From assembly GCA_036517295.1 (NCBI GenBank), contig DATDWZ010000008.1, forward strand, positions 304 to 64,303: DNA of 64,000 nucleotides, in the 5' to 3' direction. This document shows, piece by piece, positions 1 to 42,296 of this stretch. Every line of letters starts with the position of its first letter. The stretch's first letter is position 1. Source of the stretch: Minisyncoccota bacterium (GTDB lineage: Bacteria > Patescibacteriota > Minisyncoccia > Phycocordibacterales > DATDWN01). The notes beneath the pieces were generated by a model. It did not search any database, was not told the DNA's origin, and saw only the letters and a list, made by a program, of their open reading frames with translations. Made by a program: the position numbers and the translations under genes.

Positions 1-240
1 GTTCGAACAATTCCTCGACCAGAGCCTTCGCGACCTCCGGAGTCCGCGCTTTAGAGCGCAGAGAATCTGTGAGCGACCGTTCTTCTTCAAGCAGCGTGCG
101 TTTACGGCTCTCGAAATCTTCCTTGTTGAGAGTGCCGTCAACGAACGCGTCGATGAGACGGGTCAACCGCATCTGTATCGCGCCGATTTGCGCTTGCAAA
201 TGTGACTTCCGCTCGTCCTCACTCGCGTCGTCCTGCCGCT
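1..240 (-). pseudogene. Fragment of a large serine recombinase coiled-coil region (partial, runs off window start)
   Basis: Minus-strand translation of 1..240 gives ...QRQDDASEDERKSHLQAQIGAIQMRLTRLIDAFVDGTLNKEDFESRKRTLLEEERSLTDSLRSKARTPEVAKALVEELFE. This heptad-like coiled coil is typical of the C-terminal part of large serine recombinases. Its N-terminal side would lie where the + strand fragment sits, so it is a remnant or rearranged. Confidence 0.35.
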
Positions 241-242
241 GA

Positions 243-730
243 ACGGAATACACCTGCCAGAAGTGTAAGAACAAGATTCCGGCCGCTGACCTCGAAACCG
301 TGTTCCGGGAACAGCTCAAGGAATTCTTCCTATCGTCCGAGGAGCTGACCAACTACCTCGAACAGGCCGACGAGAAGGTAGTGGAGAAGCGCGAACTCCT
401 GGGAACCCTGGAGACGGACCGAGCGACCGTCCAGGCCGAGATGGAGAAGGTCTACAAGCTCTACGTCTCGGACCAAATCAGCGCCGATGGGTTCGGCCGG
501 ACATACAAGCCGCTCGAAGAACGCCTCAAGGCGCTCGACGACCAGCTCCCCAGGCTCCAGGCCGAACTCGATTTCCTGCGCATCAAGAACCTCTCCCGTG
601 ACGAAATCGTAAGCGAGGCCCAGGACCTCTATGGCCGGTGGTCGGATCTCCTGCCGGAGGAGAAGCGCCAGATTATTGAGAACGTGGTCGACCGCATCAC
701 CATCGACCTTTCATACGTTCCCTCTCCCTC
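243..730 (+). pseudogene. C-terminal fragment of a large serine recombinase (zinc-ribbon CxxC plus coiled coil); N-terminus missing
   Basis: The frame opens right after an in-frame TGA at 240-242. It reads ..TCQKCKNKIPAADLETVFREQLKEFFLSSEELTNYLEQ...RLQAELDFLRIKNLSRDEIVSEAQDLYGRWSDLLPEEKRQIIENVVDRITID, the recombinase zinc-ribbon/coiled-coil tail. It is oriented head-to-head with the minus-strand fragment at 1..240. Confidence 0.45.
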
Positions 731-756
731 TGAAATAGCCACAAAAAGGCAACGCG

Positions 757-792
757 ACCACACCCCTGCGTTGCCTTTTTGTACGGCGACCA
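757..792 (+). terminator. Putative intrinsic terminator hairpin (aggcaacgc/gcgttgcct) followed by TTTTTGT
   Basis: 9-bp GC-rich inverted repeat with a 12-nt loop and a T-tract. It lies inside the six-frame ORF 300..1214, which argues that ORF is really two genes. Confidence 0.4.
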
Positions 793-1214
793 TGAGAACC
801 GAACGGAAGCCAGAGGGATATCCCAGTGTTCTCAATAACTTAGCGGACCATTTGAAGAAGAGAATCCTCGACCTCGGAACCAATCAGAAAGAGGCGGCGA
901 GGCAGATTGGCGTCGGGACCGGGAGCTTCACGCATTGGATGAGAAAACACCGCAACCCGACCATTCGTCGCTGGCCGAAGGTCATCCAGTTCCTTGGATA
1001 CGACCCACGGCAGGCGTCGGAGGGCATCGGACAGGGCCTCGTTCGATGGCGACAGGGCAGAGGGATGTCACAGAAGGAATTGGCGGCGCAGCTCGACGTT
1101 GACCCGACCACGCTGGCCAAGTGGGAGCGTGGTGAACGTTGTCCGTCGGGCGACCGCCAGATGCAATGCACCATGCTCCTGTGCAATCTAGGCTTTCCGC
1201 GATTGCATCTGTAA
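792..1214 (+). CDS. Tandem helix-turn-helix (XRE-like) DNA-binding protein
   Basis: Starts at ATG 792, after the hairpin. There are two XRE-like HTH motifs: KKRILDLGTNQKEAARQIGVGTGSFTHWMRK and RWRQGRGMSQKELAAQLDVDPTTLAKWERGE. High GC. Confidence 0.45.
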   Translation: MRTERKPEGYPSVLNNLADHLKKRILDLGTNQKEAARQIGVGTGSFTHWMRKHRNPTIRRWPKVIQFLGYDPRQASEGIGQGLVRWRQGRGMSQKELAAQLDVDPTTLAKWERGERCPSGDRQMQCTMLLCNLGFPRLHL

Positions 1215-1321
1215 GCAGTTGACAATAAAGGACTTAGGAGGTACTCTAGTATTAGAAATCGTCTCGTCGGTAGGAGGAAGCGTTCCTTTTTCGAACGTTT
1301 CCTCGCTGCCTAGGAGGCGAC

Positions 1322-1525
1322 ATGCAGGACAAAGCGCAAGACTGCCTTCGATTTGAAGAACTACTTCGGCGTCTGGAACTCACAGACGACGAGGTCGATT
1401 TCTGCCTCAACCATCCGGGGGCGTGCGCGATTGGCGTACACACCCGAGAGGCTCAGACTCGGACCAGAAACGCCTTGCTGAGGTGGGTCGAAAGTCTCGG
1501 TCAACGGAGAGAACGGACCACGTAA
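1322..1525 (+). CDS. Small hypothetical protein (67 aa) with strong SD
   Basis: AGGAGG sits 7 nt upstream of ATG 1322. A terminator hairpin with T-tract lies at 1549..1572. Confidence 0.45.
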   Translation: MQDKAQDCLRFEELLRRLELTDDEVDFCLNHPGACAIGVHTREAQTRTRNALLRWVESLGQRRERTT

Positions 1526-1548
1526 CTTGCCACCGGCAGGTCCTGAAA

Positions 1549-1572
1549 GCCACCATTGCGGTGGCTTTTTTG
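1549..1572 (+). terminator. Intrinsic terminator gccacc-ATTGC-ggtggc + TTTTTT
   Basis: Perfect 6-bp GC stem, 5-nt loop, U-tract. Confidence 0.55.
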
Positions 1573-1669
1573 TGCTCTCGCGTCCCTACATCTTGCCAAA
1601 TAGACGAGACTTACCGGCGGCAGCCAAAAAAGATTCCCACGCTCGTCCAGGCCGGCCGAATATCCTTCC

Positions 1670-2806
1670 GTGAACGCCGCGCACTGTGCCATGGATGAAC
1701 ACAGCGAGCCACAGTTCAGGGACCTTGAGGAAGTCTTCGCGACCGGCGAGGACCAGGCGGCTGAGATCGCCCTCGAAAAGCTGCTTGAAATCCATGGACA
1801 CCGCGTCCGCCATTTTCTTTACAACGTCACGGATGTGGATGGCGCACATGAAGAGATATACGGAGACGCTTACGCGCAGGCGATCGACGACACGACCACG
1901 AACCAAATCACCAAGAAGAGTACCGAGCTAACGAAGAAGGTCATCACAGACAAGCTCAGACGCAGCTTCCAGGACGAACTGGTCGGCCTGGAATTCACCC
2001 ACCTCGCGGTTGAGATCCAGGCAGCGGGCGGCGCGAAGGGTGCGCTCCTTCACAAGCTGGCTTTCAGTAATGCTCCTGGCGTCACCGTCACAGATGTTCT
2101 CAGCGAGGGCGAATCGCGGGCCCTGTCCCTTGCGGCGTTCTTGACCGAATTAAGCACGGCCCCGACAAAGGCCGGGATCATATTCGACGATCCTGTGTCC
2201 TCATTGGATCACGTCTGGCGGGAGCGGATTGCCAAACGACTCGTGGCGGAAGCGAAGGACCGCCAGGTCATCGTCTTCACGCACGACCTGTTTTTTCTTC
2301 GAAGTCTGCTCGCAACATGCGACAGAGAATCTGTTCCGCTTCAACATCAGTACGTTCGCCGCGATGGCCAGGCTGGCATCTGCTCACCTGACCTCCCGTG
2401 GGTCGCGATGAACGTGAAGAGCAGAATTGGCGTCCTCCGACAGCGCTGGCAGGCGGCCGACAAGCTCCAGAGAACCGTGGGAAACCAAGCGTACGAGCCT
2501 GCTGCCCGCGAAATATTTGGTCTGCTTCGCGAGGCCTGGGAGCGTGGCGTGACCGAAGTCCTGCTCAATGACGTCGTCGAGCGTTACCGCCCTGCAATTG
2601 AAACGAAGAAGGTCGCGATTCTGCACGACATCACGAATGCGGACTGCAAGGCAGTTGATGATGGGATGGCAGAGTGCTCGCGGTGGATGCGTGGACATGA
2701 CGAGTCGATGGCAGACGGGACGCCGTTTCCGACGCCGGCACAGCTTAAGACAAGGATCGACGAACTTGAGGGCTGGGCAAAGGGCATTCGAGCCAAACGG
2801 ACCTGA
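1670..2806 (+). pseudogene. 5'-truncated PrrC/RloC-like ABC-type ATPase with C-terminal HEPN-like domain (no Walker A)
   Basis: ABC signature LSEGESRAL, Walker B IIFDDPVSSLD (D-loop) and H-loop VIVFTHDLFF are present. There is no GxxxxGK[ST] anywhere in the 378 aa. The C-terminal domain contains SRWMRGH (an Rx4H HEPN-type motif). The fold assignment is an inference. Confidence 0.45.
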
Positions 2807-2925
2807 GTCGACGGGTGGCACTGGCCGCACATCAGGCTGCTTCGCCACGGCCTGCTAGGCCATGCCGTGGTCAGCTTGCCGTCGTGATGGCCGCGTGAAG
2901 ATTGTTCAGGCGTTCAAAGCCGCAT

Positions 2926-4074
2926 TTACTGCCAAGGCCACGCGCCTTTTGCGGCGAACCCGAGAAGCACAGCCGCGGCTCCCCAAAGTACCGCCCTGTT
3001 ATGGACAAGTCTCAGGCTCACGGGGTCGTGTGTGGCGCGCACTAGAATGGGCAACACTGCGCGGTCGACCACAAGTACCACAGCCATCACTAGAGTTCCG
3101 AATGGGATTAGGGTTACGTAAAGATTCGATTCCGCTGCTATCGAAAGTGGAGCAGCAAGGAACTCGACAACGCCCGAAGGTATGGGCAGCACACCATTCA
3201 TGGCGAGCATCAGGGGAATGCGCGGCAGGATGTTCAGGGCGACAAGTAGACCAAGACTTGAGACGATTAGGCCGAATGCTCGCCACCTGCTCGATCTCGA
3301 TGCTCGCGTGAGAATCCGTCGAAAGACAGCGATGACTGCGAAATCTGCAAGGGCTCCGATGAGCCAGCCAGGAAGAAGTGGAAGTAGGACCGCAGGCGAG
3401 GTTACGAAAACATACTTTGTGGTGCTCGTAGGCTGTGAGCCGACCTCGATAGTGAACCAGCCGCCGATGTGGACCGCGAATGGGGAAAACAACGGTGAGA
3501 ACGACGCAAATAGAGTCAAGCAGATTAAGAGAGCCAAGGTCAGATTCTGAAGCGCCCTGGCGATGATTAGCCAGAACCGTCTTGTGGCAAAGACAGTCAC
3601 AACAAACGTCGAGGCGAGTATCGCCCCGGCCGCGCTGAGGAAGAGCCCGGCGACCTTCGCTGATGCTCTGGTGATCTCGCTTTGCACTATGCCGCGCAGA
3701 AATTGAAGGGGCTCGCCGTCTGTGAAATCATCCGGCGACAATAAGAACGCAATAGCGTACAAACCAACACCTTCTGTGACGAGCACTGACGACAGTGACA
3801 GAAGGAGCGCGGCATTGAAGGCGCGTCGAGACCATATGGTTGGGCCATAGACCTTATTGAGGAGGAGCGTTCCTATCGAGGCAAAGCCACGCATCCAACC
3901 TAAGTGACGGTTCGTTGTTGTTGCGCGGACTTCGGCAAGTCGGAGCCACCAAGTCTCCAGCGAGCTTTGGAGGACGCCTCGTTCGTCTGGGAACATGAAT
4001 AGGGCGATGTAAATCAGCAATAAAGCTGCACATAGTGCGAGACCCCGAAGAACGACCTCGGCTACGAGCAGCAT
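2926..4074 (-). CDS. Polytopic integral membrane protein, function unknown
   Basis: 382 aa with about 10 hydrophobic segments. High GC. No recognisable motif. Confidence 0.55.
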   Translation of the reverse strand: MLLVAEVVLRGLALCAALLLIYIALFMFPDERGVLQSSLETWWLRLAEVRATTTNRHLGWMRGFASIGTLLLNKVYGPTIWSRRAFNAALLLSLSSVLVTEGVGLYAIAFLLSPDDFTDGEPLQFLRGIVQSEITRASAKVAGLFLSAAGAILASTFVVTVFATRRFWLIIARALQNLTLALLICLTLFASFSPLFSPFAVHIGGWFTIEVGSQPTSTTKYVFVTSPAVLLPLLPGWLIGALADFAVIAVFRRILTRASRSSRWRAFGLIVSSLGLLVALNILPRIPLMLAMNGVLPIPSGVVEFLAAPLSIAAESNLYVTLIPFGTLVMAVVLVVDRAVLPILVRATHDPVSLRLVHNRAVLWGAAAVLLGFAAKGAWPWQ

Positions 4075-4696
4075 GGCTTTATTTCAATGAAAGGAAAGTG
4101 CACGAGTCCGGCCCGACGCAGAGAATACATCAGTCGCCTCAGGCAATCAGACTTTCCACGCCGGGGCGCCAGTGGTGGGCGGCTCCGGGCAATGGAGTTA
4201 AGCACGAGCGCACCGGCGCATCTCGGTGCACTTCTCTCTTCGCCCATTCCCAGGGTTCTCTCGCGATGCGTTTGACTTCGTCGATGGAAAGATCAGACAC
4301 CGGTTGACTGGTGTTCATGATGGTGGTGGGTTAGCTGATATGCCGCCAGCAGCATCCTGAATCGTACCGCCAGACCGCGATCTGTCACCAATTCCTGGCC
4401 GCTGAAGCTCCTTCTTGGCCCAGTCGAGGAGAGCGCGAGCTTGTACGTTCAATTCCTCGGTGTCATACTGGACGGATGAATTGGTCGAATCGGTTCGAGC
4501 CCTGTCCTGAAGACGGTCACAATCTTACGGAGTAAAAAAGTCACGGGAGTTGAAGCCTGTTTGAGATATTTTTAGAGTGAAACGAATAAAAATATCCAAA
4601 CACGGGGACTGACCGAGTAGCGGTCAACTCCCGGTAAGGTCACAAAGAGAAACTTCGGCAGAAGTGAGCGAAAAAATGGGTATATTTTCTGATGCT

Positions 4697-8176: not shown

Positions 8177-8626
8177 ATTATGTTATTAATTATTTATTCT
8201 TATAAAGAAAGGGCCCTTCACTGGCATTCTACCTCTTGAATTAATAATGTCAACCCCGAACGGTGTACTAGTTTCTCGCGCAGAATACTGATTCCTAGTT
8301 CATCCGAAAGTGACGCACAGTCGCGCTTCGGTCGGAGCCTTCATCATCCAAGACGGCACCAAGACTTCTCTGTACCTCGACGTACGAGTGAACGCGTTCT
8401 AAACGACCCATCGCGCACGGCCGGCCCCAGCCATCACGTTCTAAAGACAATTCGCCACCACGGCGACGGAAGATCCGTCACTGGGGAGGCGGATTTTTTG
8501 TTATGCAAATTTATTTTCTGAAATAACTTTTATATACGAAGAACCGGCGATCATACGACCGCCGGCGAGGGTATGTCTCCCTCTACTCGATATCCGTCGA
8601 GACGGAGGGTCGTCCTAACGACCTAT

Positions 8627-10069
8627 CTAGAAATGCAAGTTCACCGGATCCTGCGACTCGTCCTGCCGTCTGGCATAGTTCAGAGTGTCAAGGAAATCTG
8701 GCAGGTTCCCAAAGCCCCTCTTGAACCGATACAACAGATGGATGAGCTTCTGCTTCGGTTCACTGCCTTGTGGTGAGATGCGCCAGTGGTTGCTGGCTAC
8801 ACGAAGCGCGCGACTGACCATCTCTTCCGAATCCTGTCCGTTCGGCACGGCGTTCCTGAGTCGCGCTTGACTCAAGTTGACATGAGGTTGCCCTTTCGAG
8901 AAGAACAGGGCGTCCAGAACCTGTCGCGCAAGTTTCAGGTCCTCATCCGTGACTGGCGCAGAAGTCGGTGGAAGCCGCTTCTTCACAGTCATCTTCTCCG
9001 AAGCCGAAGGTTTTGGTGTGGCCGCCACCGACCTCGTTGGCGGAGGCGGAGCAGGTTTTGGAGTCGGTATTTTCGTAACCAGCTTTTGTTCCGGAATCTC
9101 GATCTTGGCCAAACCGGTCGAGACTTGGGGTCTCGAAGAAGTCGGTTCCGTCAGTGCCACCTTCAGTTGATTGAGGCGAACGACACACTGCTCGATCTCG
9201 GTCGCCATGAGAGCCAGATCCTTCGGGTCGCGCCTCTGAATTGCGACCAGAGTGGGAGGTGATAGAAGAACGTCCACTCCTTCCTGTGTTCTCTGGACAT
9301 ACCGCCGCATTGACCTGAGATAGTCCGCAATCAAGTGTGGTCTTTTGGCGTTGCCCACTTGCACACCCGCCTCTTCGGCCATCTGTCTGGCCTGAACACG
9401 CGCCTGATTGATGTTCAGTCTTTTGGTCACCACCATCCTTGCAATTTCCATCTGCAAGTCGTGGTGGAGGCCGGAGATGAACACACCAAGCGTATGGCTG
9501 AGTCGGTCTTCTTCCGAAATAGTCGGCGACATCATCGCCTGAACTTCTGGATGAAGCCGGAGAAGCGCGAGATGAGAGTACACCCAGGGTTCAGACCGAG
9601 CGAAAATCTTGGCGATTTTCGCAATCTGTTCACCGGGTGAGAAACTCTCCATTCGCTTTGACTTCCTGATACGGTTGATGGCTTGAGAGATTTCCAGAGG
9701 TGTGTGACTGGACCTGCCGAAGTTGCCGACCACCGACGCGACGAACTGTTCGTCGCTATCTTTAATTGGGCGCACCCAGGCAAGCATGGTATCCACCCCG
9801 GCCATACCGCAGGCAATCCACCGACGTTCACCGTCAACAAGCTCGTACTTGTGTTTCGGGTCGCCAATGACTGCTTTAACCACAATCGGGGTTTGCTGTC
9901 CGATTTCCTCGATGCTTGCAGCCAGGTCGTTCATGTCCTTGGCATCGAAGAAGTTGCGAGGCTGGTCGGTGAAACGCCGGATTTGGTTCCGGAGAATACG
10001 CTCAACCTTGCTGACTTCCGAACCGAGAACGCTAAAACCCGCTTCTGCTTGCTCTTGTGTGGTGGCCAT
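8627..10069 (-). CDS. ParB/Srx-domain (ParB-like nuclease/partition) protein with Pro-rich linker and C-terminal extension
   Basis: N-terminal QQTPIVVKAVIGDPKHKYELVDGERRWIACGMAGVDTMLAWVR (ParB N-domain GERR motif). SD AAGGAG 7 nt upstream. GC about 55%, unlike the flanks. Confidence 0.7.
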   Translation of the reverse strand: MATTQEQAEAGFSVLGSEVSKVERILRNQIRRFTDQPRNFFDAKDMNDLAASIEEIGQQTPIVVKAVIGDPKHKYELVDGERRWIACGMAGVDTMLAWVRPIKDSDEQFVASVVGNFGRSSHTPLEISQAINRIRKSKRMESFSPGEQIAKIAKIFARSEPWVYSHLALLRLHPEVQAMMSPTISEEDRLSHTLGVFISGLHHDLQMEIARMVVTKRLNINQARVQARQMAEEAGVQVGNAKRPHLIADYLRSMRRYVQRTQEGVDVLLSPPTLVAIQRRDPKDLALMATEIEQCVVRLNQLKVALTEPTSSRPQVSTGLAKIEIPEQKLVTKIPTPKPAPPPPTRSVAATPKPSASEKMTVKKRLPPTSAPVTDEDLKLARQVLDALFFSKGQPHVNLSQARLRNAVPNGQDSEEMVSRALRVASNHWRISPQGSEPKQKLIHLLYRFKRGFGNLPDFLDTLNYARRQDESQDPVNLHF

Positions 10070-10081
10070 TGCTAGGCTCCT

Positions 10082-10100
10082 TGTGTAAGAACACTTACAA
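10082..10100. promoter_or_regulatory. Inverted repeat TGTAAG-N4-CTTACA immediately upstream of the ParB-like gene SD (candidate operator)
   Basis: Near-perfect palindrome between the SD and the upstream AT-rich region. A regulatory role is inferred, not shown. Confidence 0.3.
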
Positions 10101-10170
10101 ACGAACCCCTACAAAGGGGCGCGAAGAATCTATGTTCATACTATATTCATGAAATATAAAGTCAATCAAT

Positions 10171-11667
10171 CTACCTATTTAGCCACTCTTTCTCCTGTCT
10201 GACCAAAAGTCTATTTTTGTCTTCAGGACACATCATTACTTCCTCAACAACTTTTTCCATACGCATAGCCTGTGAACCTTTTACCAAAATCATATCTCCC
10301 GCTTGTAGTATTTTTTGTAATTCCTTGCCCGCCTCAACTGAAGAGTCAACCGAGATTATGTTTGACTGGCCAAAACCGAGATTAATAAGCTCTTCCAAAA
10401 TCTTTTTAGCACGCAAACCGACACATATCACAAATGAAGCTGAATCTTTTATTTGTTCGGCAATCTTTCTGTGTTCATCAGCCGAATATTTGCCAAGTTC
10501 CAACATATCACCAATAATAGCAATTTTTCTACCAGAAGATTTAAGCCGAGACAACACCGACATTGCTTGGAACATTGCAACCGGTGAAGAGTTATAGGAA
10601 TCATCGATTATGATACTATCTTTTAGCCCGGGAATAAAATTCATTCTACCGGGAAGACTTCTGTTTTTATTCAAAGAAGCGGTAATTACTGACGGCTGAA
10701 GTCCGAATTCAAGACCGACGGCAAAGGCCAGGAGGCTTGAGTATTCGTTTTGAACACCTATGGACCCTTGAGATGTTACCCCATAAAGATCTTTTTCCGA
10801 AATAATATCAAAAGACATACCGGTTGGGGTTGTGTATTTTTCATCGTTATAAATGATCTCAAAATCCGAACCGCCAACATCAAAAACCTTTCCTATTCCA
10901 CAAGACACTTTCCTACCTTCCCTATCCTGTAAGAGGTTCACTGTTCGCAAATCGTCAGCATTATAAATTATAACCCCATCTTTCTTCATAGAAGCCATAA
11001 TAGACCTCTGTTCAAACAAAAGAGCTTCAATATCACGGAAGGCCTCTGTATGAACCGGCACCTCACCCATAACAGTCATGACCAAGATGTCTATATTGAG
11101 ATACGATAGTCCTGAAAGATCCCCCGGCTTGTCACCATCGAGTTCGAGAATTAACCATTTTGGGTAGGCGGATTTAATGACTATGATTTTTAGTGCAAAA
11201 AAACCCGCCTGGATCAAATCAAACCAGGTAGTCATACCGTAAGGAGAGCCAATAATGGTAAGCGGTATACCCAATTCAGCGGTAAAACTCTTTTCACTTC
11301 TGCGAACAAAAAACCTCTTGGATAGCACGAGATAAACCGCCTCACGAGTCAGAGTCTTGCCGACACTTCCGGTTATGGCAATAATTTTGGGTTTATATTT
11401 TTTTAACACCAATTTCGCTTCCCACCGAAGAATATTTTTCGCTGTTTTTTTTAGAAAATCCATGTAATATTCAGGTTTTATATTTTCCGAAACCGCATAA
11501 ATCGCTGGTGCAATTTTGCTTATCTCGTCGTTCAAGGAAACAATATCCTTGATGCATAGCCCTCTCGCAAACTCAGGCTTCGCCCTCAGACAATGCTTCG
11601 GGCTTATTTCATCTTCGTCTTTGTTTCCTAAACTCCTGCGAAGTCTCTGAAAACATAAAACCCTCAC
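10171..11667 (-). CDS. murF: UDP-N-acetylmuramoyl-tripeptide--D-alanyl-D-alanine ligase (MurF-type Mur ligase)
   Basis: ITGSVGKTLTRE P-loop. DDSYNSSP motif (MurF-like DDSYNANP). Position at the end of the mraZ-rsmH-ftsL-ftsI cluster. Confidence 0.75.
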   Translation of the reverse strand: MRVLCFQRLRRSLGNKDEDEISPKHCLRAKPEFARGLCIKDIVSLNDEISKIAPAIYAVSENIKPEYYMDFLKKTAKNILRWEAKLVLKKYKPKIIAITGSVGKTLTREAVYLVLSKRFFVRRSEKSFTAELGIPLTIIGSPYGMTTWFDLIQAGFFALKIIVIKSAYPKWLILELDGDKPGDLSGLSYLNIDILVMTVMGEVPVHTEAFRDIEALLFEQRSIMASMKKDGVIIYNADDLRTVNLLQDREGRKVSCGIGKVFDVGGSDFEIIYNDEKYTTPTGMSFDIISEKDLYGVTSQGSIGVQNEYSSLLAFAVGLEFGLQPSVITASLNKNRSLPGRMNFIPGLKDSIIIDDSYNSSPVAMFQAMSVLSRLKSSGRKIAIIGDMLELGKYSADEHRKIAEQIKDSASFVICVGLRAKKILEELINLGFGQSNIISVDSSVEAGKELQKILQAGDMILVKGSQAMRMEKVVEEVMMCPEDKNRLLVRQEKEWLNR

Positions 11668-15916: not shown

Positions 15917-17812
15917 TTATTTAAACAATTCCAATCCTTTGGTTAATTCATCCACTTCAGACTTTGGACCAAATATAAGGAGCCCAAGAAAATCAATGTC
16001 TTTTACATCCTTCGCTTTCGTCCATTCAACCACTTTGTTATCACTTGTTGTTTCTATCATCTCTTTTGTAAAGTGAGCAATTTCCAATCCCCTTTCTTGG
16101 GCCAAGTCCGATAGTCTCCAGATATCCTCCGAACTTCCGGCGGTCTTTATCATGATTGCGTGTCGGATATTCAATCTTATATTTTTATTGTCTTGAGTTT
16201 TTATGGAATCGAATTTAAAAAGATTATTTTTCGACCGTGCGCCAAAAGCCACACCGAGATGAGCGATGGTATTTGCAACCTTCCAGGGTTCCAGATTCAA
16301 CCCTTTATTTATTATGGCTGTCACGACCCAAGTCGCCTTATCTTTCTTTTTTATTTCCTCCAGAGGTCTCATCAGCGGGAAAGCTTGCAGTTCGCGAAGT
16401 GGTTTATCCGCCAGAAAAGCAAAGAGTCTCTCGCCGAAACCGAACCCACAGGTGGGAGGCATACCGTGTTCCAGCATTTCCACAAATTCATCATCCTGCA
16501 TCATGGCCTCCGTATCGCCGGCATCTATCAACCTCTGTTGAGCCTCAAATCTCTGTTTTTGATCAATCGGATCATTCAACTCGGAATAACCGTTCCCGAC
16601 TTCACTGCCGGCAATAATCGGCTGAAATCTTTGGGCGGTTTTTATATTATCCGGGTTCGCTTTTGACAGTGGTGCAACCAGAGTCGGATGGTTTATGAGA
16701 AAGGCCGGGCCGGAAATCTGCCTACGGCAATATTTCCATAAGGTATCCGTCAGCCTCTCCTTATTGTCTCCTTCATACTTTACACCGAGCTCATCCAATT
16801 TCTTTTTCATATCACCTTCGCTCGCGGTTAACAAATCAATGTTGGTCATTTCTTTCACTTTTGAAACATAGTCTATTTTTTTCCATTCATCGGCCAAATC
16901 GAAAGAGTGTCCGTGAGTGGTAAACTTTGTAGTACCAAAAACTTTTTTGGCAATCTCAATATACATTTCCCGCACCAATTCCATACCATCGTTATAATCG
17001 GCAAAGGACCAGTAAAATTCCATGTTCGTAAATTCTTGAGCGTGCTCGGGAGAAGTCCCCTCATTCCGATATGCCTTTCCTATCTCAAAAGTCTTTGGGA
17101 AGCCACCGGCCATAAGTCTCTTCTGCCACAATTCGCCTATCGATATGCGTAAATAAACATCGAGGTCATAATCGTTGTGGTGTGTTCTGAATGGAGTGGC
17201 CTCCGCGCCTCCAGTGGTGGTTTCAAGAGTCGGGGTCTCAACTTCGAGAAACCCTTTGCTCTTCATAAACTCCCGAGTTACATCCCAGAATTTGGATTTT
17301 TTTACTATCAAATCGCGTAACTCGCCGTTCATTAAAAAATCCAGGTATCGCTTTCTATACCTTTCATCAACATCCTGTAATCCGTGCCATTTTTCCGGTA
17401 ACGGCAGGATGGACTTACAGGCCATGACCCAAGAATTAACTATGATACTTTGTTCGCCTGTTTTAGAAACCGCAGGAACGCCGGTAATAGAAATAAAATC
17501 TCCAACATCGATGGTGTCCGTAAATAAAGAAAAATTATCGACCTTTATTTCATCCTTTTTTACAATAGCCTGAATCCTTTCCGTTCCATCAAAAAGCACG
17601 GCAAAAAGTATGGCCCCCTGGCCACGCAGAGCCATTACTCTTCCGGCTACAGAAACCGGTTTGCCCGATTTACTCCTTGTATCAAATTCGGATTTTAAAA
17701 TAGATATCGGAAAATCTCGTGGGACTTTTGCCGGATATGGGTTTATACCTTTACTTTTCAGTATTTCAAGCTTTTGTAATCGCGCTTGCCTTATTTCTTC
17801 TAGTGAGGCCAT
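15917..17812 (-). CDS. lysS: Lysine--tRNA ligase (class II) with ~140-aa C-terminal PTH2/DUF2000-like domain
   Basis: Class II LysRS core (anticodon-binding OB fold, then motifs through ...GMPPTCGFGFGERL). The C-terminal extension TWVVTAIINKGLNLEPWKVANTIAHLGVAFGA...LLIFGPKSEVDELTKGLELFK resembles the peptidyl-tRNA hydrolase PTH2 fold (VIVVRTDL...AQ..HA ... AIGP...VTG.LKLL). Confidence 0.85.
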   Translation of the reverse strand: MASLEEIRQARLQKLEILKSKGINPYPAKVPRDFPISILKSEFDTRSKSGKPVSVAGRVMALRGQGAILFAVLFDGTERIQAIVKKDEIKVDNFSLFTDTIDVGDFISITGVPAVSKTGEQSIIVNSWVMACKSILPLPEKWHGLQDVDERYRKRYLDFLMNGELRDLIVKKSKFWDVTREFMKSKGFLEVETPTLETTTGGAEATPFRTHHNDYDLDVYLRISIGELWQKRLMAGGFPKTFEIGKAYRNEGTSPEHAQEFTNMEFYWSFADYNDGMELVREMYIEIAKKVFGTTKFTTHGHSFDLADEWKKIDYVSKVKEMTNIDLLTASEGDMKKKLDELGVKYEGDNKERLTDTLWKYCRRQISGPAFLINHPTLVAPLSKANPDNIKTAQRFQPIIAGSEVGNGYSELNDPIDQKQRFEAQQRLIDAGDTEAMMQDDEFVEMLEHGMPPTCGFGFGERLFAFLADKPLRELQAFPLMRPLEEIKKKDKATWVVTAIINKGLNLEPWKVANTIAHLGVAFGARSKNNLFKFDSIKTQDNKNIRLNIRHAIMIKTAGSSEDIWRLSDLAQERGLEIAHFTKEMIETTSDNKVVEWTKAKDVKDIDFLGLLIFGPKSEVDELTKGLELFK

Positions 17813-17955: not shown

Positions 17956-19068
17956 TTACCTAATCGATTCGTATCCCCCCACCACACCATCCGGTGACAA
18001 GACTATCTGCCATAGATATATTTTCCTCGCCCGAAAGGCTCCAGCGCATGATAATAGATAATACCTCCACATTCTGTAGAATCTATCGCCATATTTTTGT
18101 GACAGTTCCAACCAGTGGGTATCAAAATTCTTGAACCAAGCGCAAAGGGTCTTGTCATAGTCGGCGCCAAAATTATGCCAATCTTCGATAACAAACTTAT
18201 CTTCAATAGCCCGACTCAACTGGACAAAAGAAGGTAGTTTGCTGTTTGGAAAAATATATTTGTTCATCCAGGCGTCGGTGGCTCGGGTAGTTCTGTTATT
18301 ACCGATGGTGTGCAATAAAAACAACCCGTCGTCTTTCAGACATCTTCGCACCATCTTCATATATATGGAATAATTTTTTATACCGACATGTTCAAACATC
18401 CCGAGAGAAATTATGTGATCGAATTTTTCGTCAACTTCTCTGTAATCCTGCAATCGAATCTCGACGGGTAGTCCTGCACATCTCTCTCGGGCCAGCTCGA
18501 CCTGTTCCTTAGACACCGTTATTCCCACAACACTCACTCCGTATTTTTCTGTGGCGAATTTTGCAAAACTTCCCCATCCGCAACCTATATCCAAAACCCT
18601 CTGACCTTTTTGAAAATTAAGTTTTTTGCAAACCAGATCAAGTTTATTCTCTTGGGCTTCATCCAGATTTTTTGCATTCTTCCAATAAGCACAAGTGTAA
18701 ACCATTCTTTTATCCAACATGATTTCGAACAAATCGTTTCCTATATCATAGTGTTTCTCTCCGATCTCAAAGGCCTTAGCTCTTGCTCCTTGGTTCGTCA
18801 GCAAAGCCTTAAGATAAAGGGATAAATTGGAAAAATTCAGAGAAACCCTTTTTTGTATATCGGTTTTTAGAATGCGATTTATACACTCATCCAGTCCATC
18901 GCAATCCCACCAACCGTCCATGTATGACTCACCAAAAGCCAGAGGGCCACCGGAGATTACTCTTTTATAAAATTTATCGTTATGTACTTTTATATCGAAA
19001 GGCCTATCACCGTTTATTTTTACATCCGCACTTTGGAGAAGTTTTTCTACAAATGAGCGCGAGTTCAT
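17956..19068 (-). CDS. cfa: Cyclopropane-fatty-acyl-phospholipid synthase family SAM-dependent methyltransferase
   Basis: VLDIGCGWGSFAKFA SAM motif. CFA-synthase-like length and C-terminal region. Confidence 0.8.
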   Translation of the reverse strand: MNSRSFVEKLLQSADVKINGDRPFDIKVHNDKFYKRVISGGPLAFGESYMDGWWDCDGLDECINRILKTDIQKRVSLNFSNLSLYLKALLTNQGARAKAFEIGEKHYDIGNDLFEIMLDKRMVYTCAYWKNAKNLDEAQENKLDLVCKKLNFQKGQRVLDIGCGWGSFAKFATEKYGVSVVGITVSKEQVELARERCAGLPVEIRLQDYREVDEKFDHIISLGMFEHVGIKNYSIYMKMVRRCLKDDGLFLLHTIGNNRTTRATDAWMNKYIFPNSKLPSFVQLSRAIEDKFVIEDWHNFGADYDKTLCAWFKNFDTHWLELSQKYGDRFYRMWRYYLLSCAGAFRARKIYLWQIVLSPDGVVGGYESIR

Positions 19069-34597: not shown

Positions 34598-34915
34598 TCC
34601 GGTGTAGCTCAGTGGTAGAGCAATCGCCTGTACCGAAAGGTTGTGCAGCTTCCTAAAGTAATTTAGGATGAAAAATGAGGTGAATTCGGGGAACCCCACA
34701 GTTTAATAGCTGAGGGCAATCCCGAGCCAAGTCCCGAGAGAAATCGAGGGAAAGGTGTAGAGACTATCTCGTAAGAGAGTAGCCGTCACGCAAGTGAGTA
34801 GGCGAAGCGCCCCACATCCCACTCAGAAATGAAGGATGATGATATAGTCCAGACCAAAGGCAACTTTGGATAAAATGTAAGCGATTGGTCGTAGGTTCGA
34901 TCCCTACCGCCGGAG
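34598..34915 (+). tRNA. tRNA-Asn(GUU) interrupted by a group I intron in the anticodon loop (exons 34598-34631 and 34878-34915; CCA not encoded)
   Basis: Acceptor tccggtg/cgccgga (U1-A72, G73 as in Asn). D-arm gctc-agtggta-gagc. Anticodon stem atcgc/gcgat with loop CUGU|UAA after splicing. T-arm gtagg-ttcgatc-cctac. 5' exon ends in U; intron ends in G. Confidence 0.7.
34632..34877 (+). ncRNA. Group I intron (IC3-like, tRNA anticodon-loop type), ~246 nt
   Basis: Conserved core strings AAUCCCGAGCCAAGUCCCGAGAG (cf. AAUCCUGAGCCAAGCCGAAG), AAGGUGUAGAGACUA (P7; cf. GGUGUAGAGACUA) and UCGGGGAACCCC. Ends with omega-G. Confidence 0.7.
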
Positions 34916-36562
34916 CAATGGTCGTGAAAGAGGTATAATTTGCCTCTGTCGTGGCTTTACCAGGGACTTTTTTGAGGTTCGAAAATGATTTCGAGGCTCC
35001 GGAAGTTCCACAAATGGTTGAGAACTCGTTTTTAACAAGGAACCGCCAGCCGTAAGGGTTTTGGTGGTTTTTTGTGCTTGTTCGAAAGTTTTCTCTTGAT
35101 CTAGTCGTTGCTGTACTCTTTCCGCAAGTTTCTGAACTGGAGTTTTCATTGTCGGAGTTACTTCTTTATCTGTAAGTATTAAGTTCGAAAAGATATGACT
35201 CAAAAGTAATCTTCTGTCTTCGGGAGACCTTTTCTCGTATATCTCTCTTGCTCTCCTAGCAAGGTCAATTATATTCAACCAGATTTCAAAATACTTTGCT
35301 TCTTCAGTCTTAATCCTACCAAGTTGTTCTATCACAGCATTTTGCTCTTCTATTATTTCCTTATTTTTTATCTCCCAACGCTCTCTTGTAATTCTCTCAT
35401 CAAGACGGTCATCATATACGTTATCTAAACGTCTCTGTAGTGAGCTGTAGCGGTCGTTAAGCCCCTTGATAGCACTTTCCTTGTACTCTATCTCTTGGGC
35501 GTGGTTTTCCTTAATTTTAACCTTAATTTGCTCTGCCTCTTCTGGTGTTATGGTTTCAAAGAACTTAAAGACTCCAAAGAGTTTGTCTTCGAGTTCCTTT
35601 TCCGGTGCATACTTTTTCTGAGAGCAGTTTCGGTAATGATTGCAGTGATAATAGACTATTCCTTTCTGTATTTCTGCCGTAATAGTCCCACTACATTCTC
35701 CACAGATAAACATTTTTCTAAATTGAAACTCGTGGCGGTTAAAGTGAGGAGTCTTTTTACCCATTCTAATATCTCTAACCTTTTCAAATAACTCTTTGGT
35801 GATAAGGGGTTCGTGAGACCCATTACTAAAAACCTCATCATTCCATTCCATCGCTCCATAGTAAAAAGGATTATTAAGAATACTCTCAATAACACTTTTT
35901 ACCATCTTCTTACCAGATCGAGTCCGAAATCCCTCTTTGTAAAACATCTCAATCACGGCTTTCATAGAATAGTTACCAGAACCATAAAGTTCAAACATCC
36001 TTTTTACGAATGGAGCGATTTCTTGATCTATTATGTGTGTTTTATGTCCCTTCTCACCAATGGTTTTATATCCGAGTGGAGGTTTTGTTGGTAACCACCC
36101 TTGAGCAAGTTTTTCTTTCTGACCCTTTTTTACCTCTTCAGATAGATTTGAAATAAACTTCTTAGCTAGAACTATTTCAATATCCCAGCGAAACTTTTCG
36201 TCAGATTTAGCGTTCTTATGGATAATCAGATTTTGCTTAACAAAATGTATTTGCCTAGAAACATCTCCCTCAACCCAATCGTTAATCGCTAGTGCTTCCT
36301 TGAAGTTGCGAGTAAGTCTATCTACTTTCTCACAGAGTAATATATTTACTTTATTTTTTTCCAAAAACTCTAACATTTCTGCAAAAACCACTCGTTGTTT
36401 TGCACCACTTGCTGACTCTGCAATCGAAAAGACTTTTATCATCTGAAAATCTTTTCGCTGAGCATATTCCTCCATAAGTTTAACCTGTGATGGCAAAGAA
36501 TAACCTGTTTCTTCTTGTTCTTTTGATGAAACTCTACAATAACTAACTGCTTTTATTTTCAT
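34904..36562 (-). CDS. Large serine recombinase (resolvase catalytic domain + recombinase domain + zinc ribbon + coiled coil)
   Basis: YCRVSSKEQ catalytic Ser motif. Recombinase domain. CGECSG...YYHC zinc ribbon. Long coiled coil. The 3' end overlaps the tRNA-Asn 3' end. Confidence 0.85.
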   Translation of the reverse strand: MKIKAVSYCRVSSKEQEETGYSLPSQVKLMEEYAQRKDFQMIKVFSIAESASGAKQRVVFAEMLEFLEKNKVNILLCEKVDRLTRNFKEALAINDWVEGDVSRQIHFVKQNLIIHKNAKSDEKFRWDIEIVLAKKFISNLSEEVKKGQKEKLAQGWLPTKPPLGYKTIGEKGHKTHIIDQEIAPFVKRMFELYGSGNYSMKAVIEMFYKEGFRTRSGKKMVKSVIESILNNPFYYGAMEWNDEVFSNGSHEPLITKELFEKVRDIRMGKKTPHFNRHEFQFRKMFICGECSGTITAEIQKGIVYYHCNHYRNCSQKKYAPEKELEDKLFGVFKFFETITPEEAEQIKVKIKENHAQEIEYKESAIKGLNDRYSSLQRRLDNVYDDRLDERITRERWEIKNKEIIEEQNAVIEQLGRIKTEEAKYFEIWLNIIDLARRAREIYEKRSPEDRRLLLSHIFSNLILTDKEVTPTMKTPVQKLAERVQQRLDQEKTFEQAQKTTKTLTAGGSLLKTSSQPFVELPEPRNHFRTSKKSLVKPRQRQIIPLSRPLLRR

Positions 36563-37287: not shown

Positions 37288-39699
37288 CTAGAACAAGTCC
37301 TCAAACGGTCTCCATTCCTTACTGTCATTTACTGACTGTCTTTCCCTAAAGGAATACTTCGGACTATCGTTGTAATACCAAAGTCCTGCTTCTTGTACCG
37401 CAATACCACCTACAAACTTTTTACCAAATTGCTTGAGCTTAGCTTGCAATGATTTTGCCTTATCAGCGGTATCTGTACTTGTTGCGGTATCTCCTTTCTT
37501 CGTATCAAAAATACCTATACGACCATCAGAGAAGCGAATAATCCAGTCAGGATAAAACAGGTTTTCTTCTTTTGTTGATGAGTTTGTATATTTAATGCCT
37601 AGATAGTTTTTTCCTTGATCGCCGTTTTTGAACCACCAATCAATCTTCCCTTTTTTCTTTTCCAAGTACTCGACAAAAGCAATTTCATTTTTGCGTCCAT
37701 TATAATCTTCTAATAAGTAGAACTTGTCTAATACACATAACTTTTGAGGGACAACCTTATAATCTTCAGGATACCGATATTCTTCTTGTATAGTAAAAGT
37801 ATATGCTTGCTGTTCTTCTATCTTCTTTTTCTTGTCAGTGAGTAAACTATCTGAAATTGGTTTGTAAGCTCTAAGTGCCTTTGTTATTGCCGGACGAAAC
37901 TTACTTTCAGTACCTTTACGAATATCTTTAATAAATATCTTGTACCAAAAAATATGGTCATCAAGTAAAACTGTCTTAAACCAAACACGAAGTGCTTGTT
38001 TTAACACTGACCAAGAACGAGCTATGTTAGAGTATCTAGCTTTGTCGTCTTCTTGTTCTTTCAAGATTTGGTAACAAAGATAGTTGAATGTTTTTTCAAC
38101 ATCACTCACTGACATTTCAAGAGAAACATCACTACCTTTCTTTTTGAAATCAAAAGCAAGGTTATCGTAGTCCTCAAAACGAGCATTGGCTATAACTTCA
38201 TTTACTAAAGTATTACTAAGATCCAGCCCTGCCTTTTTTAATTTTATCTCTGATTTACCTAAAATATCTTTCTCACTAATACCAAAATGCTTGTTTAATT
38301 CTATTCTAAAAACTTTTTGGAACTCTGAAGATACACGAATATCTCCGTAATCTAAGCGAGAAATATAATCAGAAGGCAACTCTATATTACTTATTCCTTT
38401 TTTTATATGTGCAGTTTCTGTAAGAGCTTTATTCGCAGGGTTTTGATCTGGTATTACTACTTCCTTACGCTTATAGTTTGTATATAGATAACCCAATCGG
38501 AGGTTAGGATTATTTTTGTAATCTTCTTTTGCTTGAGGTTCAGGCATTCGCAAAATACGCCCAACAGTTTGAGTATAAAAAGTATTTGATTGTATCTCTC
38601 TAAACATCACAAGTACCGATGCACGAGGACAGTCCCAACCATTACCAGCAGTTTGTTTGAAGATCAGAAAATCGTGTTCATCGTCATTTTCTTCTAGCCC
38701 CTTCGGTTTATCTTGTCCCTTAGACCATTTTGCAATTTTATGTTCAGGTACTTTCATTCTAACAAGATAATCTGTAACAATTTTTTCCTTTGTCTGTTCG
38801 CCTTTTTCTATTAACTTACTGTCGTCATTCGGTATTTGTATTAACATTAAAGGATTTATTTCTTTCCCGAGTGCCTTAAGTTCAGCTTTTAATTCTTCTC
38901 TTTTATTTATTCCATTTTCAAGAAGAACTCTATCAAGGTCTTTACCGGACATACCCTTAAAATCTTCATCTGTTTGAGTAACAATAGCTTCTTTTATTAA
39001 ACCTTGATCAACCACTTCTTTTCTTGGGACTTCATAATAACTACCAAGACGGCGAGCATCCAGTTCGTCATCTCGGTTTGGTGTAGCTGTAATGTGAAGA
39101 ATTACCTTAGGATCAATCATCTCGATAATATCCTTTGCGAGCCTCGTGTCTTTGTTTTTATGGGCTTCATCAATAACTAAAATAATCTGCCTGCCATCAG
39201 CGTGTGTTTGCTCAATTACATCCTCAAAGTATTTACCCGTTTCTTTTATCCACTCTTCATCTTCAGGACGGCGAAGTAATCTTGTTTCTGCACTTTTAGC
39301 AGTAACTTTTTGCCAATTCAAAAACAAAATATCATTTTGATATAGTTTGCCTTGATTTATATCTGCAACAGTCAAAGCTCTGTTTTCAAGCATATTTTCA
39401 AAATACTCAAGAAACTTACCTTTACTTTGCATAGCCAAATCATCACTGAAAGTAATCCAAATAAATGCCTTGTCTTCTTTCCATTGTGGTAAATGATTAA
39501 GGCCACGAATAAAGAGTGAGGTCATAAAGGTTTTACCGCTACCAGTTGGCGATTTGAAAACAATAGGTAATTGTCTGCCTTGTTGTTTCCATATCGCTAC
39601 AAACATATCTGTAAGATTTTCTACAGCAGTTTTTTGGAATTGTAATGGATTAAATGTTTTCATATTAAATAATATTGTATATTTGCTTGTATACCTCAA
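37288..39699 (-). CDS. res: Type III restriction enzyme Res subunit (SF2 helicase + C-terminal PD-(D/E)xK endonuclease)
   Basis: KSPTGSGKTF (motif I), LVIDEAHKN (DEAH), ITATPN (motif III). C-terminal PDWIIRF...IGIFDTKKG nuclease motif. Confidence 0.85.
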   Translation of the reverse strand: MRYTSKYTILFNMKTFNPLQFQKTAVENLTDMFVAIWKQQGRQLPIVFKSPTGSGKTFMTSLFIRGLNHLPQWKEDKAFIWITFSDDLAMQSKGKFLEYFENMLENRALTVADINQGKLYQNDILFLNWQKVTAKSAETRLLRRPEDEEWIKETGKYFEDVIEQTHADGRQIILVIDEAHKNKDTRLAKDIIEMIDPKVILHITATPNRDDELDARRLGSYYEVPRKEVVDQGLIKEAIVTQTDEDFKGMSGKDLDRVLLENGINKREELKAELKALGKEINPLMLIQIPNDDSKLIEKGEQTKEKIVTDYLVRMKVPEHKIAKWSKGQDKPKGLEENDDEHDFLIFKQTAGNGWDCPRASVLVMFREIQSNTFYTQTVGRILRMPEPQAKEDYKNNPNLRLGYLYTNYKRKEVVIPDQNPANKALTETAHIKKGISNIELPSDYISRLDYGDIRVSSEFQKVFRIELNKHFGISEKDILGKSEIKLKKAGLDLSNTLVNEVIANARFEDYDNLAFDFKKKGSDVSLEMSVSDVEKTFNYLCYQILKEQEDDKARYSNIARSWSVLKQALRVWFKTVLLDDHIFWYKIFIKDIRKGTESKFRPAITKALRAYKPISDSLLTDKKKKIEEQQAYTFTIQEEYRYPEDYKVVPQKLCVLDKFYLLEDYNGRKNEIAFVEYLEKKKGKIDWWFKNGDQGKNYLGIKYTNSSTKEENLFYPDWIIRFSDGRIGIFDTKKGDTATSTDTADKAKSLQAKLKQFGKKFVGGIAVQEAGLWYYNDSPKYSFRERQSVNDSKEWRPFEDLF

Positions 39700-42005: not shown

Positions 42006-42296
42006 AGTTATAATTATACTTTACTATTCTTTACAAGCCAAACTCACGAAGTGGACAACCTTATGAACACAACATAATAAAAATAGTATTGGCAGATCAA
42101 TAACCTATGATATAATTCACCCACAACTGAATAAGCAGACCTAACCCTATAGTTTTTATTATAGGTATGGTTGCAGGTCGTATAAGGCACAAAGAACCCA
42201 TCGCAGGGTCGCCTTATACGCCTTATCGGGAAACCGGTATGAGGGACTTCGGTCTCTACCTGTGGTGGGCTTTTTGTATATAAAAATAGTAAAATT

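Follow-up and report, generated by a model that had tools for sequence, protein, structure and literature searches.

The question raised by this locus is how a single GC-rich gene comes to lie directly behind murF, at the end of the dcw cluster of a Minisyncoccota bacterium, and what its product does there. The stretch analysed, 64,000 nucleotides of contig DATDWZ010000008.1 and referred to below as the window, carries between a surface-protein gene and murF an open reading frame (ORF) at 8627..10069 on the minus strand, which is intact and encodes a ParB-like protein of 480 aa. In an earlier note made from the sequence alone, the gene was described as a ParB-like insert that truncates the dcw cluster and that may be either the remnant of an integrated element or a chromosomal ParB-like nuclease. 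The present results favour a different answer, which we regard as reasonably probable: this is an intact gene for an orphan protein of the ParB/Spo0J/Noc type from a small Patescibacteria family, organised as a self-contained unit and acting as a laterally exchanged regulator or organiser. The unusual composition pointed out previously, a segment of about 55% GC, was confirmed. The GC content of the gene is 0.55, compared with about 0.40 in the host part (mean 0.402, sd 0.036 and maximum 0.469 over every 1443-nt window across 10.2-64 kb), corresponding to a z-score of 4.1. At the first, second and third codon positions GC is 0.61, 0.42 and 0.63, respectively, while the third-position value (GC3) ranges from 0.39 to 0.48 in six host genes (murF, ftsI, rsmH, lysS, typA and mreB); the excess falls largely on synonymous sites. 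The arrangement does not represent a misassembly, since several independent groundwater assemblies contain the identical protein, on 15 contigs in all, and the 5 contigs fetched display the gene order of the window at an identity of at least 99.9%.

The nature of the protein was analysed through profiles, structure prediction and motif conservation, which identify the coding sequence (CDS) as ParB/Noc-type by Pfam, NCBIfam, a family profile and an AlphaFold2 (AF2) model. Pfam ParB_N (PF02195) is matched with an E-value of 6.5e-16 and 58.6 bits (cut-off 26.3), and the NCBIfam model for the ParB/RepB/Spo0J domain, TIGR00180, with 83.9 bits against a cut-off of 58.45. Over its positions 16-238, the family profile, built from 22 member sequences, matches ParB, Spo0J and Noc entries of the PDB with E-values of 3e-25 to 4e-21; for KorB the E-value is 2e-11. 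The AF2 model has a predicted local distance difference test (pLDDT) above 90 over aa 20-235, reaches target template modelling (TM) scores of 0.65-0.73 against C. crescentus ParB, Noc and KorB, and overlays the ParB-parS and Noc-DNA domains in the helix-turn-helix (HTH) region. The chain comprises ParB_N (aa 21-108), a ParB-type HTH extending to about aa 235, a helical hairpin (aa 246-306), a Pro-rich linker that is disordered in the AF2 model (aa 310-365), and a helical C-terminal domain of about 110 aa (aa 370-479), confidently predicted by AF2 as five helices. This agrees well with the earlier description of a ParB N-domain, a Pro-rich linker and a separate C-terminal domain. Across the 22 sequences G79-E80-R81-R82 and N115 are invariant, and Q35-P36-R37 is conserved in at least 90%; in the alignment to M. 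xanthus ParB, these pocket residues coincide with its DQPR, GERRW and ENLQR boxes. The motifs of the cytidine triphosphate (CTP) pocket, QPR, GERRW and N115, thus appear to be intact, and the protein may be expected to bind CTP. Judged from profiles and predicted fold, it is a DNA-binding nucleotide switch of the ParB/Spo0J/Noc/KorB type rather than a nuclease-type ParB-fold protein. The designation as a nuclease is not sustained: profile and fold match CTP-binding clamps, the HTH is present, and no nuclease domain was detected in the protein by Pfam, NCBIfam, PADLOC or fold searches.

Several features typical of a partition system were also looked for. The ParB_C dimerisation domain (PF23552) has no Pfam match in the protein, and the ParA-stimulating LG(R/K)GL motif cannot be read in its N-terminus, MATTQEQAEAGFSVLGSEV. 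As had been noted before, the gene is not adjacent to parA: in the 10 kb to each side of it, no ParA-like Walker-type ATPase is encoded, either in the window or in contig L201. As regards parS palindromes, of which partition systems usually have several near the origin, the 64-kb window, which does not include the origin region, contains a single 16-bp palindrome, located in the gene's own leader. Palindromes inside the gene that are repeated at matching codons in homologues, such as GCGAAGATCTTCGC near +447 and GACGAACAGTTCGTC near +315, were considered as internal parS sites. As these two specify the conserved peptides AKIFA and DEQFV through G/C-ending codons, they may arise in the absence of selection at the DNA level. 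An antisense gene within the CDS was rejected; the antisense ORFs are conserved no more than the sense frame, and stop codons break them in orthologues.

The gene is preceded and followed by signals of its own. Promoter-like boxes, recognised by consensus match and conservation, occupy 10138..10169 on the minus strand and begin 2-6 nt past the murF stop codon (10173-10171), with a -35 box TTGATT/TTGACT at 10169-10160 and a -10 box TATAGT/TAGTAT at 10145-10138. Homologous loci carry a TTGATTTT -35 box and a -10-like box at the equivalent position. Downstream of the boxes, at 10102..10123 (minus strand), lies the leader hairpin SL1 (CG.GCCCCU-UUGU-AGGGGU.CG, -11.7 kcal/mol), followed by a U-rich tract. 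When each leader was folded singly, SL1 formed in all 10 distinct family leaders, with energies between -6.8 and -11.7 kcal/mol. The CCC/GGG core of SL1 does not vary, and the outer pairs show compensatory changes (G-C, C-G, A-U and G-U), the G-U pairs favouring an element that acts at the RNA level on the sense strand. RNAalifold, applied to the leaders aligned with MAFFT, returned no structure, as the loops differ in length and the 3' arm was put out of register. Next to the start codon, at 10084..10099 on the minus strand, the 16-nt palindrome TGTAAGtgttCTTACA (TGTAAG-tgtt-CTTACA) can be read from the sequence, and after it, at 10077..10082, the Shine-Dalgarno (SD) sequence AAGGAG, 7 nt ahead of the ATG (10069-10067); both had been correctly recognised at the outset. 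Within the 64 kb no second exact copy of the palindrome occurs. When up to 2 mismatches were allowed, there were 4 matches, 2.5 being expected, which indicates no enrichment of the pattern. It overlaps a family-conserved GTTCTTCA box that is able to pair with the SD, and in other leaders the arms around this box vary in sequence yet stay self-complementary. A protein operator is therefore no more likely than a second stem-loop or a switch sequestering the SD, and the palindrome is a candidate for a stem-loop as well as for an operator.

The full upstream set (-35 and -10 boxes, SL1, GTTCTTCA box and AGGAGCTCA SD) is clearest in 7 leaders of the long form of the family, whose members fall into two size classes of about 430-480 aa and about 310 aa. 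Mean leader identity is 0.58, compared with 0.48 in a control stretch farther upstream. At the other end, 60 nt past the stop codon, a terminator-like hairpin CCGGCG-N10-CGCCGG followed by TTCTTCGT can be read at 8536..8566 on the minus strand; it was missed by the terminator scanner owing to its loop of 10 nt. The long-form homologues L001, L005, L008 and L009 have a different terminator in common, AGCCAG..CTGGCTTTTTAAATTT. Promoter-like boxes, structured leader, SD, CDS and terminator thus appear to form a self-contained unit of about 1.65 kb, in which the leader hairpin and the SD-proximal palindrome with its anti-SD box probably control the expression of the ParB gene itself.

The intergenic region behind the gene measures 450 nt (8177-8626) and is mostly GC-rich, in line with the roughly 400 bp of GC-rich non-coding DNA reported initially. 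Two GC-rich parts, 8225-8495 and 8545-8626, are divided by an AT-rich stretch of 40 nt. The former, a non-coding segment of 270 nt with about 57% GC and no assigned strand, is located between the ParB unit and the surface-protein promoter, just upstream of the near-consensus boxes TTGACA-16-TAGAAT at 8253-8226. It contains two minus-strand copies of GTC(G)TTTAGAACG, at 8437-8448 and 8395-8407, and its sole ORF encodes 51 aa from a TTG start. Rfam gave no match in the segment at E <=1, no fold signal was obtained (z -0.5), and no homologue was present in 200 fetched loci. A known or structured RNA was accordingly dismissed as the content of this spacer on the Rfam result and the fold z-score.

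Regarding the dcw cluster, the closest retrievable relatives are two contigs, L120 and L121, whose proteins are 61-64% (MurF), 73-75% (FtsI), 78% (LysS) and 84% (MraZ) identical to those of the window. The order PBP2-greA-lysS-mraZ-rsmH-ftsL-ftsI-murF is common to all three. In both relatives the block stops at murF, without mraY, and unrelated genes come next. Nothing has therefore been truncated in the window, and the notion of an interrupted cluster has to be abandoned. No ParB-like gene is found within 8 kb in L120 or L121, so that it is absent after murF; since the flanking proteins there are just 61-84% identical to those of the window, this does not constitute a clean empty site. The earlier note had proposed that vertical inheritance would be indicated if relatives had the same gene at the same position and mraY was located elsewhere in the lineage. 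Of this, the latter part holds, as the block ends at murF in the relatives and mraY is elsewhere, while the gene itself is not at the same position there. In L120 an NMO-family oxidoreductase gene (10059-11153) follows murF-NUDIX and produces a GC spike of 0.53 in a 1-kb window, compared with 0.29-0.45 elsewhere. This GC-rich gene and the absence of ParB from the relatives indicate that the position after murF is variable in the lineage, and it seems to collect genes of foreign composition.

Some further differences were observed within the block. The murF ORF at 10171-11667 (minus strand) encodes 498 aa from a GTG at 11667, 66 aa more than in relatives (432-433 aa); a start at the ATG at 11469 yields a protein alignable with these over its whole length, and gene callers on other contigs chose 473 or 498 aa. 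Lysyl-tRNA synthetase (15917-17812, minus strand) has 631 aa and a C-terminal DUF2000 extension, which is lacking in the L120 and L121 orthologues of 483-485 aa. Between greA and lysS, a CMAS-type (cyclopropane-fatty-acid-synthase-like) methyltransferase is encoded at 17956-19068 on the minus strand, absent from this position in L120 and L121; a copy with 61% identity occurs directly downstream of the ParB-like gene in L019 (11524-12651).

The distribution of the family was then considered. A search of 5.8 billion proteins gave 44 matches, of which 39 belong to the family proper, the best being 62% identical. The source of these 39 members is either unnamed or labelled Nomurabacteria, Doudnabacteria, Jorgensenbacteria, Minisyncoccia and the like, and about 10 more close loci each were obtained from 185,579 species genomes and from JGI metagenomes. 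To judge from these matches, the family is so far confined to genomes of Patescibacteria (candidate phyla radiation, CPR) and to metagenomes. All 14 distinct loci have a family gene richer in GC than its flanks, 0.48-0.62 versus 0.33-0.52, which usually forms an island of one gene. Ordered by flank GC, the values of flank and gene are 0.33 and 0.48, 0.37 and 0.52, 0.40 and 0.55, 0.42 and 0.54-0.59, 0.44 and 0.62, and 0.52 and 0.56. The rise in GC3 amounts to about 0.1-0.2 in the window, L001, L005 and L117, and merely to 0.01-0.09 in L116 and L118; for more distant ParB homologues, the GC offset lies mostly between -0.03 and +0.10. As the excess is displayed by the whole family in all its hosts, it cannot by itself date an insertion in the genome of the window. 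The horizontal origin suggested in the earlier note thus stays plausible by virtue of the absence of the gene at this site in the nearest relatives, the patchy family and the foreign composition, although the GC excess provides no date for it. The loci carrying the family have no neighbouring gene in common with the window locus. The contig L005 encodes a canonical ParB with ParB_C in addition to the family member. In L011 the ParB-like gene (1648-3200) seems to be frameshifted: a 412-aa ORF stops early and the C-terminal domain resumes in another frame. Database "proteins" of about 220 aa that match the profile of the C-terminal domain, such as P0176, resemble split 3' halves of this kind.

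In some relatives the gene is associated with that of an AAA+ ATPase. In L116, L117 and L118 the ParB gene is followed by one for a PspF-like protein of 322-354 aa, in L122 the PspF-like gene precedes it, and in protein P0031 the ParB N-domain and HTH are fused directly to a PspF-like ATPase. The partner consists of a sigma54-activator AAA+ domain and a Fis-type HTH_8, without a sensory N-domain, and in all 5 copies its sigma54-contact loop reads GAFTDA instead of GAFTGA. The spacer behind the window gene was examined as a decayed partner and rejected, tblastn with 3 partner proteins being null at 8200-8626 as well as across the window. No AAA+ gene being present in the window, the partner is not obligatory. 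The recurrent link between a ParB clamp and a bacterial enhancer-binding protein (bEBP)-type AAA+ protein, including one fusion, suggests a CTP switch feeding an ATP-driven machine. A bolder formulation is that of a Patescibacteria-specific, laterally exchanged cassette from promoter to terminator, in which a ParB-type CTP clamp works with the PspF-like ATPase (GAFTDA), once as a fusion, and which keeps its own GC (about 50-60% in hosts of 33-47%) through repeated transfer or selection at the DNA level. We regard this as unlikely for the time being. If true, it would represent a new two-component switch acting on DNA, for example a sliding clamp that delivers an AAA+ remodeller to promoters or foreign DNA.

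A mechanism can be proposed for the ParB protein from its analogy to ParB, to Noc and, above all, to KorB. Through its HTH, the dimer would recognise a specific DNA site. CTP would bind in the conserved QPR/GERRW/N115 pocket, and the dimer would close to a clamp that slides or spreads. The clamp would then serve as a regulator or nucleoid organiser, not as a ParA-driven segregation protein. The C-terminal helical domain, together with the adjacent or fused PspF-like AAA+ ATPase in some relatives, probably represents the interface to an effector or partner, and the leader elements would set the level of ParB expression. With chromosomal ParB/Spo0J (M. xanthus 7BNK, B. subtilis 6SDK and C. crescentus 6T1F) the protein has in common the ParB_N pocket boxes I-III and the HTH, at target TM scores of up to 0.73. 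It differs from them in having no parA neighbour, LG(R/K)GL motif or ParB_C, and has instead the helical hairpin, the Pro-rich linker and the new helical domain of about 110 aa. Noc, from Bacillota, begins with a membrane-targeting helix. Like it, the window protein is an orphan ParB paralogue with N-domain and HTH (TIGR04285 over aa 22-285; target TM 0.65), but it scores 82.2 bits against the TIGR04285 cut-off of 315, and a membrane-targeting helix is not evident at its N-terminus. In function, an autoregulated ParB that depends on a partner is best compared with KorB of plasmid RK2, a CTP-dependent repressor working with KorA, whose structure 8QA9 is matched with a target TM of 0.72-0.73. 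In contrast to KorB, the window protein is chromosomal and has neither the KorB-specific domain nor KorA or IncC neighbours; the place of KorA is taken, where a partner is present at all in the relatives, by the PspF-like AAA+ ATPase. That partner resembles PspF-type bEBPs in its sigma54-activator AAA+ domain and HTH_8 and departs from them in its GAFTDA loop and its linkage or fusion to ParB. On the features examined, the protein falls outside the ParABS, Noc and ParB-nuclease groups.

It does fit the class of the orphan ParBs (Kaljevic et al., bioRxiv 10.1101/2025.10.10.680097), described in the matched passages of that paper as having a ParB-CTPase fold encoded outside a parAB operon, no ParA-binding motif and a lineage-specific extra domain, as being frequently tied to mobile elements, and as possibly connected with gene mobility. 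The main-text passages matched do not include a Patescibacteria family, its C-terminal domain, a pairing or fusion with a bEBP-type protein, or a GC excess. Compared with those passages, the present family is set apart within the orphan class by its private C-terminal domain, the bEBP-type AAA+ partner or fusion, the conserved structured leader and the persistent GC excess. The protein is thus of a common kind, and it is the evolutionary and compositional setting of its gene that is unusual.

How the gene reached its position can be judged by weighing the alternatives against one another. It could have been inserted recently, as the leftover of an integrated plasmid, phage or integrative and conjugative element (ICE) that brought in a gene for a ParB-like nuclease or for partition and broke into the dcw cluster behind murF. 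The GC offset of the gene and its absence at the site in L120 and L121 would fit such an event, as would the adjoining 8 kb, where further GC-rich, decayed and foreign-looking genes are located (a truncated PDC-S06 ATPase, HTH and recombinase-like fragments), and the frequent association of orphan ParBs with mobile elements in the matched passages (bioRxiv 10.1101/2025.10.10.680097) points the same way. However, the cluster ends at murF in the relatives as well, the fold is that of a ParB/Noc clamp and not of a nuclease, and the gene is intact, with conserved boxes, leader and terminator of its own. Neither an integrase nor att-like or otherwise credible flanking repeats were detected, ARAGORN found no tRNA in 64 kb, and the sole recombinase-like trace is a weak fragment 7 kb off, in ORF 300-1214. 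The best plasmid relatives are ordinary ParBs with 25-30% identity and those on viral contigs reach at most 35%, on which ground a plasmid or phage origin was rejected; a larger element defined by common neighbours was rejected too, none being found across the family loci. Furthermore, the two GC-rich parts are separated by the surface-protein gene, whose GC3 of 0.34 is lower than the 0.39-0.48 of the host genes sampled, so that they do not form a single contiguous island. Taken together, a recent insertion is improbable, and the gene does not qualify as what is left of an integrated element. A defence or anti-mobile-element module, in which a ParB-type clamp, in some loci with the AAA+ ATPase, senses or silences foreign DNA, appears less probable still. 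ParB-fold domains do occur in several defence systems, such as DndB. The patchy distribution, the foreign composition and the location in a variable region would suit this explanation, and so would neighbours such as the PDC-S06 fragment in the window, a PIN toxin in L001, DUF3800 in L116 and Fic/RhuM in L117. These neighbours are nevertheless not conserved, the ParB protein is matched by no PADLOC model and has no nuclease or other effector domain, and the AAA+ partner matches only models of the regulator type (RtcR/PspF).

The more demanding comparison is between lateral exchange and descent of a lineage-specific second ParB, whose GC would be held by selection or biased gene conversion and whose positions would vary as a result of poor synteny in CPR genomes. 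L118 and L122 carry the gene at the same site, between prfA and rpsB, with prfA 74% and rpsB 75% identical, yet their ParB proteins are only 41% and their AAA+ proteins 44% identical, and the order of the two genes is swapped; with L116 and L117, by contrast, L122 has 72-74% identity in ParB. L005 and L008, with the gene at different sites, have 84% identity in TopA and 60% in ParB, and L001 and L117 have 54% in GyrA and 59% in ParB, with S1-lactamaseB-gyrA downstream in both. In these comparisons, ParB divergence does not track host divergence, which, together with the GC excess and the patchy distribution, suggests lateral exchange among Patescibacteria. The family has probably been exchanged within this group, perhaps by replacement at the same site. 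Descent is further disfavoured by the sparseness of the family among thousands of Patescibacteria genomes, by the absence of the gene beside murF in relatives whose dcw proteins are 73-84% identical, and by the lack of a known mechanism that holds the GC3 of one gene 0.2 above its genome. A number of observations weigh on the other side, against the reading preferred here. L005 and L129 (rpoA 90%, grpE 79%) both have the gene after rpsI-grpE, which, with L118 and L122 and the surroundings shared by L001 and L117, speaks for retained positions. Four-fold sites between homologues are near saturation (0.19-0.53 identical, 0.24-0.32 expected) while GC3 is still high. Long residence with a maintained GC excess consequently fits parts of the data no worse than recent transfer, and the GC of the gene approximately follows that of its host at a higher level. 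Identity in ParB is comparable to that of housekeeping proteins in the pairs window and L009 (ParB 51-54%, TypA 64%) and window and L005 (ParB 48-53%, PBP2 50.5%). The absence of tRNA, integrase and repeats from the window and of close plasmid or viral relatives also counts against mobility. As for function, HTH_ParB in Pfam reaches 21.9 bits for the window protein, slightly below its cut-off of 22.6; no ParB binding site was identified, the sequence of the lone palindrome not being conserved among orthologues; and tblastn with the 3 partner proteins located no AAA+ partner beside the gene or anywhere in 64 kb. Vertical inheritance is nonetheless considered doubtful, and the laterally exchanged orphan ParB is retained as the preferred reading.

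Other features of the window were observed in passing. Its first part (1-4500) forms a second GC-rich block, with 57% GC and GC3 of 0.60-0.74, made up of decayed, foreign-looking genes. Here, ORF 1670-2806(+) encodes just the C-terminal 310 aa of the PADLOC PDC-S06 ATPase (profile 546-857 of 858, E 9e-105), ORF 300-1214(+) has two HTH_3 domains and a coiled-coil part with weak similarity to the C-part of the serine recombinase CcrC, and ORF 2926-4074(-) encodes a multi-pass membrane protein without a family match. Farther along, a group I intron at 34630-34870(+) (Rfam, 75.6 bits) directly adjoins a large serine recombinase gene at 34904-36562(-). The intron may interrupt a tRNA gene that borders an AT-rich island; as mentioned, ARAGORN reported no tRNA. 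The stretch 37288-41350(-), with 33-36% GC, contains by eye a candidate restriction-modification pair, and a LOOT RNA is located at 42138-42257(+).

For the window itself, these results imply that the dcw cluster has not been disrupted and that the gene behind murF is, as judged from profiles, predicted fold and surroundings, neither a nuclease gene nor a plasmid remnant. Orphan ParB-CTPase proteins are a growing class, most of which have no assigned job. The gene described here adds a compact, seemingly autoregulated example from minimal genomes, where any regulator that is kept or reacquired is informative. Moreover, a single gene that holds its GC 10-18 points above that of the genome in many hosts provides a case in the CPR on which amelioration can be tested against selection for base composition.

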